From contig JAXLZO010000001.1 in assembly GCA_046350815.1 (NCBI GenBank), forward strand, positions 570,001 through 602,000: a DNA stretch of 32,000 nucleotides. The letters run 5' to 3'. Origin of the DNA: Candidatus Saccharimonadota bacterium (GTDB lineage: Bacteria > Patescibacteriota > Gracilibacteria > BD1-5 > UBA2023). Position 1 is the stretch's first letter, and each line of letters begins with the position of its first letter. Below are positions 15,306 through 16,039 of the stretch, one piece after another. The translations under genes were made by a program, and so were the position numbers. The notes below the pieces were generated by a model that did no database searches, was not told the DNA's origin, and was given only the letters and a program-made list of their open reading frames with translations.

Positions 15306-15536
15306 GAAAAGAGGAAGATCCCCGATTCGCGACGACTGTTTCGCTCTCTGGACAGCTTGAGGCTAGCTGAATCAAGTTCAGGATGACAACATATTTTTCT
15401 TGTTACTGTCATTCCCATACAGATGTGAATCTTGCGAATGGATAGAAGTAGATCCCCGCCTCCGCGAGGATGACAAATAAATAAGTGAAATGAACAATTA
15501 AAATGTTGTCTGTCATTCCCGCACCGGTGGGAATCT
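15306..15536. repeat. mosaic hairpin array 2a
   Basis: CTGAATCAAGTTCAGGATGACA (15367-15388), a two-hairpin cassette TGTCATTCCC..GAATCT...AGATCCCCGCCTCCGCGAGGATGACA (15407-15475), and TGTCATTCCCGCACCGGTGGGAATCT (15511-15536). Confidence 0.85.
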
Positions 15537-15553
15537 GCTTCTTCTTGTGCCTA

Positions 15554-15841
15554 TTACTCCCGTATTTCATCTGCTAAATCCCTCCATTCTGGATTTTCTT
15601 CTTCTATAAGTCTCACTTTCCACTCTCTGTTCCATTTCTTCAATTGTTTTTCTCGAGTGATTGTTCATTCAATACTGTTTCCATATTCAAAATATACGAG
15701 TTGATAAGTATGATACTTGCTGCTAAAACCATCAAGAAGATTATTTTTGTGTTCATACATTCTTCTCGCAAGATTATTTGTCACCCCAATATAGATCACC
15801 CCATGCGGTTTGTTTGTGAGGATATAGACGTAGTATTGCAT
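15554..15841 (-). CDS. small stand-alone GIY-YIG nuclease (95 aa)
   Basis: MQYYVYILTNKPHGVIYIGVTNNLARRMYEHKNN...REKQLKKWNREWKVRLIEEENPEW carries the GIY-YIG, R and E motifs. One in-frame TGA hides it from the ORF track. TAA at 15554-15556. Confidence 0.85.
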
Positions 15842-15909
15842 ATGAGAGAATGAAAATTGTAAGATTTTTGTTTATACTCTTAACTCTTGTTGCTCATTCA
15901 TTCCTTTTC

Positions 15910-16039
15910 TGTCATTCCCGTGCAGACGGGAATCTTCTTGATGGATGTAGCCAGATCCCCGCCTCCGCGAGGATGACAAAGAAATAGAAAGGATAACAGA
16001 CTAGATTACTGCCTGTCATTCCCGCGCAGGCGGGAATCT
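15910..16039. repeat. mosaic hairpin array 2b, a 130-nt direct copy of 15407-15536
   Basis: Cassette at 15910-15978 and TGTCATTCCCGCGCAGGCGGGAATCT at 16014-16039, with the same element order and the same length as 15407-15536. Confidence 0.85.

Follow-up and report, generated by a model that had tools for sequence, protein, structure and literature searches.

The 32-kb stretch of DNA analysed here, referred to below as the window, contains at positions 15554-15841 a gene that very probably encodes a nuclease of the Ssn family, and the GTCAT-stem-loop-stem-ATC hairpins on either side of it are, with the same high confidence, its cognate SRM repeats, called NTS in Neisseria. Ssn proteins consist of a single GIY-YIG domain and act on single-stranded DNA (ssDNA) only, which they cleave beside NTS/SRM hairpins (Chenal et al. 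2025, Nat Commun 16:2388, PMC11893778). A sequence-only reading of the window had hypothesised that the nuclease acts on the repeats among which it sits, and this idea is supported by homology to the characterised SsnA system, by the match of the hairpins to NTS/SRM, and by the association of gene and hairpin at 72 of 80 homologous loci. The link between nuclease and repeat is already published (PMC11893778), and the locus is a further example of a known system. We found nothing further on Ssn in the literature beyond that study.

In N. meningitidis, SsnA (NMV_0044) is a 94-aa single-domain GIY-YIG protein that is assigned to cd10448 in CDD (the GIY-YIG_unchar_3 family), and its cutting activity is abolished by Y6A, Y17A, and E64A (PMC11893778). 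The NTS hairpin, CGTCATTCCCGCGMAVGCGGGAATCYRG, is a longer, oriented motif with a dRS3 core, and about half of all dRS3 copies are NTS (PMC11893778). SsnA binds NTS only in single-stranded form and cuts a few nucleotides upstream, while duplex DNA, RNA and the reverse strand are unaffected; cleavage depends most on the three bases 5' of the palindrome, and binding on the C immediately 3' of it (PMC11893778). SsnA enzymes of four species cleave ssDNA beside their own hairpins, and in Neisseria the system reduces transformation by NTS-carrying DNA (PMC11893778). The usual gene arrangement is NTS-ssnA-NTS, with the motif near 71% of homologue genes and on both sides of the gene in 42%, an arrangement that the authors liken to an insertion sequence and to REP/RAYT, raising the mobile-element idea in their discussion (PMC11893778). 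Their survey was based on RefSeq, and the term Gracilibacteria is absent from the main text.

The window protein, which we call Ssn, has a Pfam PF01541 (GIY-YIG) match over residues 2-75 of 95 (E 5.6e-14). Pfam gave no second independent domain, since a T5orf172 match overlaps the PF01541 residues, and no NCBIfam model scored above its cut-off. As a reference we used the 94-aa N. gonorrhoeae orthologue of SsnA, from a gonococcal chromosome filed as a plasmid in PLSDB. Its open reading frame (ORF) was the sole tblastn match in that record (51.6% identity, E 2e-25) and is itself flanked by NTS copies. BLASTP aligned the two proteins without gaps, with 48 of 93 positions identical (52%) at E 3e-36, compared with the threshold of E < 1e-10 by which homology is defined in PMC11893778. 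Y6, Y17, and E64 are the same residues, with the same numbering, in the window protein and the gonococcal orthologue. In a 24-sequence family alignment R27 and H31 are conserved alongside them, and the window protein keeps all of the invariant columns. A promoter-like sequence, a match to the consensus, lies between the upstream hairpin and the ssn start codon (Table 1); six such sites were found in the region, with 4.1 expected.

We scanned the window for hairpins in which GTCAT precedes a stem of 6 bp or more. Twelve were found against 0.5 expected, all of them intergenic with respect to the predicted ORF coordinates. The hairpins fall into three classes by stem: A, with ATTCCCGY; B, with ATCCTCGC; and C, with ATCCTGAA. 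The 5' GTC and the 3' C are retained in all three, and the predicted ssDNA folding of each class beats that of shuffled controls. For example, the class A hairpin at 16014 has an 8-bp stem (-8.9 kcal/mol, z -3.95), and over 16014-16041 all but two of the 28 nt agree with the NTS consensus (26/28). The degenerate SRM search pattern of PMC11893778 has two hits in the window, at 15910 and 16014, with 0.08 expected. The palindrome with its 5' GTC and 3' C is exact at 15512, 15911, and 16015 and has one mismatch at 15408, always on the plus strand. Within it, the core ATTCCC-N8-GGGAAT occurs exactly at 15515, 15914, and 16018. The sequence-only reading had given this core as the form of the neisserial dRS3 repeats, which is correct according to PMC11893778, and had left homology and convergence as alternatives. 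Because the homology to SsnA, the NTS/SRM match and the association at 72 of 80 loci point the same way, the likeness to dRS3 most likely reflects a homologous system and not convergence. Table 1 lists the copies in the window, decayed ones included.

Table 1. The ssn gene and hairpin copies in the window, in order of position.
Position	Strand	Feature	Remarks
13279-13304	minus	Dispersed class B hairpin	Without a nuclease gene nearby
13594-13619	minus	Dispersed intact class C hairpin, TGTCATCCTGAACTTGATTCAGGATC on minus strand	
15367-15388	minus	Class C hairpin remnant, CTGAATCAAGTTCAGGATGACA on plus strand	3' arm partly decayed; repeat family D10
15407-15432	plus	Decayed class A hairpin TGTCATTCCCATACAGATGTGAATCT	
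15450-15475	minus	Class B hairpin	Same sequence as the 15953-15978 copy
15511-15536	plus	Class A hairpin TGTCATTCCCGCACCGGTGGGAATCT	About 18 nt past the ssn stop codon, strand opposite ssn
15554-15841	minus	ssn, encoding a predicted Ssn-family nuclease (95 aa, single GIY-YIG domain)	Pfam and SsnA alignment
15856-15883	minus	Promoter-like TTAAGA-16-TACAAT	Between upstream hairpin and ssn ATG; consensus match only
15910-15935	plus	Class A hairpin TGTCATTCCCGTGCAGACGGGAATCT	SRM pattern; perfect 8-bp stem; 69-70 nt upstream of ssn start codon
15953-15978	minus	Class B hairpin, TGTCATCCTCGCGGAGGCGGGGATCT on minus strand	Exact 26-mer; 8-bp stem with one mismatch
16014-16039	plus	Class A hairpin TGTCATTCCCGCGCAGGCGGGAATCT	Best NTS-like copy; 5 nt from methyltransferase stop codon
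19520-19545	minus	Class B hairpin	GTCAT end faces that of 19557-19582
19557-19582	plus	Intact class C hairpin	GTCAT end faces that of 19520-19545
20062-20087	plus	Variant hairpin	Upstream of uvrC
20132-20157	minus	Class B hairpin	Upstream of uvrC
22365-22390	plus	Decayed class A hairpin	Repeat family D2
22439-22465	minus	Class B variant with an extra C	Repeat family D2

The ssn gene is the sole gene between two 130-nt blocks, 15407-15536 and 15910-16039, whose starts are 503 bp apart and each of which consists of three hairpins in a common order. The sequence-only reading had described these segments, their period, their shared element order, and the lone 95-aa GIY-YIG gene with one in-frame TGA, and all were present as described. 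Ungapped, the two blocks are identical at 97 of 130 positions, and beyond the 130 nt their similarity falls to background (12 of 30 positions match on the 5' side, 9 of 30 on the 3' side). Between the blocks, identity reaches 22/26 in the first hairpin, 26/26 in the 26-mer AGATCCCCGCCTCCGCGAGGATGACA and 23/26 in the last hairpin, compared with 8/17 in the 17-nt linker and 18/35 (51%) in the 35-nt spacer; the spacer had been noted before, at a somewhat higher similarity of about 55-60%. Conservation is thus limited to the hairpin modules while the linkers have diverged, and the left and right blocks are therefore not products of a recent duplication. Both modules recur in the window, with five exact copies of AGATCCCCGCCTCCGCGAGGATGACA and five matches to GTCATTCCC-N8-GGGAATC (at most 2 mismatches), against none expected of either in shuffled sequence.

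The blocks had previously been described as direct repeats, which holds for the copies as wholes but overlooks the fact that the middle hairpin of each block reads GTCAT on the opposite strand. Each block therefore consists of one class A hairpin and an inverted hairpin pair. In both blocks the second class A hairpin can also pair with its class B neighbour across the 35-nt spacer to form one long imperfect hairpin (-25.7 kcal/mol, z -3.9 in the right-hand block). In the decayed hairpin at 15407 both sides of one G-C stem pair have changed, giving A-T, and another pair is disrupted; the equivalent hairpin in a related contig, L083, has an intact stem, with TATCAT replacing TGTCAT.

Hairpin modules also occur in four further intergenic regions of the window without a nearby nuclease gene, and the repeats are thus a dispersed family that is not private to ssn. 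In related Gracilibacteria contigs, which were chosen for containing class B, we counted 206 hairpins in 356 kb. At gathering thresholds, Rfam gave two tRNAs only in the window and no intron or other RNA family at the locus. A permissive Rfam search added only sub-threshold FtrB and Atu_C9 matches, and the hairpins correspond to no known RNA family. The matches to FtrB, a Francisella small RNA, lie on SRM hairpins at 15997-16054 (+) and 19505-19562 (-) and score about 27 bits against a gathering threshold of 66, which hints that the Francisella FtrB model may include an SRM-like hairpin.

The association of gene and hairpins was also checked independently in other genomes. A scan of species-representative genomes yielded 80 loci whose proteins are 52-66% identical to the window protein, distributed over Patescibacteria, Bacteroidota, Ignavibacteria, several proteobacterial classes, Omnitrophota, Planctomycetes, and others. 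In 72 of the 80 loci the gene has a GTC(A/T)(T/C)-hairpin at a distance of at most 250 bp, and 42 loci have one on either side; close to the gene there are 4.1 hairpins per kb, compared with 0.22 per kb farther off. An identical class A core of 24-25 nt is found next to or near several homologues (L036, L041, L053, L060, L063, and others), including loci from Patescibacteria, Deltaproteobacteria, and Noviherbaspirillum, and in a Rickettsiales locus (L048) the identical core lies about 3.5 kb from that genome's own ssn homologue. Hairpins like those of classes B and C adjoin homologues in other Patescibacteria (L034, L067, L079). At L067 the hairpin upstream of the ssn homologue is 91% similar to the class C copy at 13594-13619, and at L079 it is identical over 25 nt to the class C copy at 19557-19582.

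The hairpins at these loci also have a preferred arrangement. The common upstream hairpin lies on the coding strand and ends about 20-40 nt before the ATG (strand split 51 vs 19), and the common downstream hairpin lies on the opposite strand, 10-50 nt past the stop codon (71 vs 21). The GTCAT ends therefore face outward, and the predicted cut sites with them, an arrangement that is not what the words "orientation" and "inverted" refer to in the main text of PMC11893778. In the window, the hairpin at 15511-15536 has the usual downstream position and orientation, and the class B hairpin at 15953-15978 corresponds to the usual upstream partner, with an extra class A hairpin between it and ssn. 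In N. gonorrhoeae the layout is reversed, with GTCAT ends toward the gene, and the hairpin arrangement is thus not fixed.

By homology with the neisserial enzymes, a strand reading 5'-GTCAT...ATC-3' would fold into a hairpin when it becomes single-stranded. The enzyme of about 95 aa would bind this hairpin, an interaction that in Neisseria relies on the sequence of the stem and on the C immediately 3' of it, and would then hydrolyse the hairpin strand a few nucleotides 5' of GTC, sparing duplex DNA, RNA, and the complementary strand. Because four plus-strand class A and two minus-strand class B hairpins surround ssn, both strands carry candidate cut sites, on both sides of the gene. The layout of one nuclease gene and many hairpins resembles that in Neisseria, and by analogy the likeliest cellular role would be to trim incoming or exposed ssDNA and to modulate recombination, although a selfish role is also possible.

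Several observations weigh against this interpretation. When the stem sequence was altered and the hairpin structure kept, N. meningitidis SsnA was inactive (PMC11893778). Because only class A resembles NTS, and because a stem change of this kind abolished SsnA activity, the class B and C hairpins may not be substrates of the enzyme encoded here. The window protein also departs from the family consensus at three near-invariant positions (T15V, L16I, and A60T). No second ssn was found in the window, where the only other GIY-YIG match is the N-terminus of UvrC (E 0.09). Finally, the hairpin nearest upstream of ssn has the minority orientation when compared with the 80 loci.

The locus differs from its neisserial counterpart in its host. 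Throughout the window TGA serves as a sense codon, 7-13 times per gene (7 in radA, 8 in uvrC, and 13 in miaA), for example in the ORFs at 602-1960 (-), 20225-22216 (+), and 28983-29960 (+); gene calling with the standard code fragments most genes. The ssn gene has one in-frame TGA, at codon 59 (15665-15667). Homologues have Gly at the TGA positions of FtsH and at one of two methyltransferase sites, while the ssn position is variable among homologues (S/A/D/E/G) and is Gly in the NCBI copy of the protein. We considered TGA as Trp (code 4) and rejected it in favour of Gly on the basis of the NCBI copy, FtsH, and one of the two methyltransferase sites. The best named relatives of RadA are all Candidatus Gracilibacteria, at about 50% identity. 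Judged from the Gly at TGA positions and the RadA relatives, the host is a Gracilibacteria lineage that uses genetic code 25 (TGA = Gly).

The sequence-only reading had also proposed that the nuclease and its flanking repeats form a mobile unit, or that the nuclease propagates the repeats. We compared the locus with ten metagenome contigs of the same species (95-100% identity). Nine of these (among L001, L082, and L084-L092) are collinear with the window at the locus. The remaining contig, L083, diverges past the left block, but has a coverage of 1.4x; it may be a chimera and was therefore not counted as movement. In a sister species, Ssn is 88% identical in protein and about 82% in DNA, and ssn lies beside the same methyltransferase gene. 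Exact class B hairpins are present on both sides of that ssn, with two hairpins per side compared with three in the window, and its linkers differ from those of the window. An empty site turned up in neither the ten contigs nor the sister species. Because the strains and the sister species hold the unit in the same place, there is no sign of recent movement in this lineage, and the mobile unit or repeat-propagating enzyme stays a hypothesis.

The hairpin-ssn-hairpin unit could still be an autonomous selfish mobile element, with pairs of one class A and one class B hairpin, about 69 nt long, as non-autonomous derivatives resembling MITEs (miniature inverted-repeat transposable elements) or REPINs. 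Ssn cuts just outside the hairpin ends would then start copying by host repair or recombination. This alternative overlaps with the assignment to the Ssn family, as it concerns why the system exists and not how the enzyme acts; we consider it possible but rather unlikely. The outward-facing GTCAT ends at the 80 loci resemble terminal inverted repeats, yet in N. gonorrhoeae these ends point toward the gene. A proteobacterial bin (BP5.bin83) holds three ssn paralogues (L015, L023, and L043) that are 88-96% identical in DNA, and their similarity stops at most about 7 nt from the outward GTCAT end of the downstream hairpin. On the other side, the similarity between L015 and L023 starts at or near the upstream hairpin, and that of the pairs with L043 starts closer to the gene. 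Pairs of a plus-strand class A and a minus-strand class B hairpin, with outward ends and spacers mostly of 18-23 nt, occur 21 times in the 356 kb of related Gracilibacteria contigs, a count taken over contigs chosen for class B, with the same locus in some cases sampled from several metagenomes; only one ssn locus was found in these 356 kb. Horizontal spread would fit both the protein identities of 52-66% and the occurrence of identical hairpins in different phyla, and the authors of PMC11893778 raise mobility as well. However, all ten same-species contigs and the sister species hold ssn beside the same methyltransferase gene, without presence/absence polymorphism, and no target-site duplication was seen. 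The in-frame TGA would block intact expression under the standard code and argues for long residence in the host, with ssn kept long enough to adapt to the host's code. Mobility of the unit is thus a reasonable but unproven idea. As a separate observation, a run of truncated GTCATT heads lies upstream at L015.

Of the hallmarks of an insertion sequence or a MITE, inverted ends are present in the unit in the form of hairpins, and neither target-site duplication nor insertion polymorphism was seen in the ten contigs and the sister species. The analogy with REP/REPIN repeats and their RAYT enzymes (IS200/IS605-like), drawn in the sequence-only reading, holds for the layout: in both cases one enzyme gene sits amid dispersed hairpins that the enzyme recognises, here by prediction, as ssDNA, and the repeats form inverted pairs and intergenic mosaic clusters. 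It does not extend to the chemistry. The enzyme fold, the chemistry and the repeat sequences are unrelated, the window enzyme being GIY-YIG and not an HUH Y1 transposase. HUH Y1 enzymes form a covalent intermediate and then rejoin the DNA, whereas GIY-YIG enzymes are hydrolytic nucleases that cannot reseal DNA on their own; the likeness is therefore one of layout only, and the same property speaks against mobility driven by Ssn alone. The dRS3 repeats, which share the core palindrome with the window hairpins but are themselves defined in Neisseria only, also serve as an attachment site for filamentous prophages, and nothing of that sort was seen at the window locus. We tentatively suggest, as the less probable outcome, that ssn genes with outward hairpin ends make up a mobile-element class of their own, based on a nuclease that hydrolyses ssDNA, that the 69-nt A/B pairs are its non-autonomous derivatives, and that the clusters are rearrangement hotspots, in or near which the gene order of the sister species breaks off from that of the window.

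A second alternative is that the hairpins serve the neighbouring genes, as transcription terminators or by stabilising mRNA, and that the nuclease lies among them by coincidence. Three class A hairpins do resemble terminators on the plus strand, where the stem is followed by a T-rich tract (7 such sites in the region vs 1.1 expected), and all hairpin copies are intergenic. We nevertheless regard this explanation as highly unlikely, because ssn and the methyltransferase gene lie on the minus strand, where the flanking hairpins have no T-tract, and because the conserved non-palindromic GTC and C flanks fit a protein recognition site and not a terminator. In addition, the association in 72 of 80 unrelated genomes is beyond coincidence, and SsnA does not bind RNA (PMC11893778).

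The least probable explanation, to which we give almost no weight, is that the protein has no connection with the repeats and is either a GIY-YIG nuclease of the general repair or structure-specific kind (UPF0213/YhbQ, Slx1) or a homing endonuclease of the free-standing type: the generic GIY-YIG domain is the only Pfam match above cut-off and there is a weak NCBIfam match to group I intron endonucleases (TIGR01453; 26 bits vs a cut-off of 56, residues 5-36 only), but SsnA is the closest characterised relative, with a full-length, gapless alignment, a DNA-binding domain and an intron context are absent, and we found neither a solved structure matching in sequence at E 0.01 or better nor an Ssn homologue in phage genomes. 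With GIY-YIG homing endonucleases such as I-TevI and Seg the protein would share the catalytic core and possibly a selfish lifestyle of cleavage followed by host repair, and it differs from them in lacking their C-terminal DNA-binding domain, their intron or phage setting, and, by prediction, their cutting of duplex DNA.

The assignment to the Ssn family thus places the locus closest to the neisserial system, which has a single-domain GIY-YIG protein of the same size (94-95 aa), an essentially identical hairpin, GTCATTCCCGCG-N4-CGCGGGAATC, hairpins on both sides of the gene, and many further intergenic copies. Here, in contrast, the host is a member of the Gracilibacteria, within the candidate phyla radiation, with code 25 and an in-frame TGA in ssn; three hairpin classes with different stems occur alongside one ssn in the window; and inverted hairpin pairs and a three-hairpin block are found on each side of a gene whose activity is predicted from sequence. 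The Ssn/hairpin system is thereby extended to an episymbiotic lineage of the candidate phyla radiation with a recoded stop codon. Three hairpin classes beside one nuclease provide candidate combinations of enzyme and hairpin, with putative new specificities, for tools of the ssDNA-cutting kind suggested in PMC11893778, and the orientation statistics and paralogue boundaries make the published idea of a domesticated mobile element concretely testable. Hairpin repeats of this kind are also of practical concern, as they break metagenome assemblies and yield spurious ORFs. Some gene calls run into SRM hairpins and acquire the peptide tails IPAQAGIQ, DSRLRGND, and SFPRRRES (P0002, P0103, and L093 1214-1411 and 1900-2097); these tails are probably annotation artefacts that are common in databases.

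The intergenic regions that contain SRM hairpins vary between related genomes. Sister-species contigs (L107, L123, L126, and L141; 80-90% nucleotide identity) differ from the window in gene order, with breakpoints in or near repeat-rich intergenic regions at about 510-600, 12890-13620, 15400, and 22220-22790. In L123, the homologue of window positions 1-507 lies directly against the ssn unit, at its left class B hairpin. The region 2015-2341 of the L082 strain (94-96% identity) is a 327-nt intergenic stretch that corresponds to 1131 nt in the window (19094-20224), and an 86-nt module at 19610-19695 of the window is inverted in this strain; the repeat mosaic thus varies between strains.

Other repeats share these regions. 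A 72-nt repeat beginning with AAAYCTCCCACTCCCAARRGAATGGGAGCGAGCCGATTGYATGGAAAGA occurs at 13119-13190, 15243-15314, and 19945-20016, with two copies 92% identical. It adjoins SRM clusters and has a hairpin of its own (CTCCCA...TGGGAG), but it does not belong to the SRM repeats, and Rfam gave no match to it. G-rich palindromes in pairs, CCCCCTCAACGAGGGGGA and then TCCCCTCTTGAGGGGTG..GCGGGGTGG, are found at 13385-13512, 19271-19358, 20170-20257, and 22230-22311; this family shares the intergenic mosaics with SRM, and one copy lies just upstream of uvrC. Near-perfect terminator-like palindromes are present at 15085-15116 and 19780-19812 (AAGAAAAGACCCCGTG/CATGGGGTCTTTTCTT and AAAAGACCCACTACGAATGGGTCTTTTATTTT), and the second is preceded by an unannotated stretch of about 100 nt that might be a small RNA. 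Finally, an 865-aa ORF at 5950-8547 (-) has a type IV pilin-like N-terminus, GFTLTELIVVITILSILS, which may be relevant if Ssn acts on DNA taken up by the cell.

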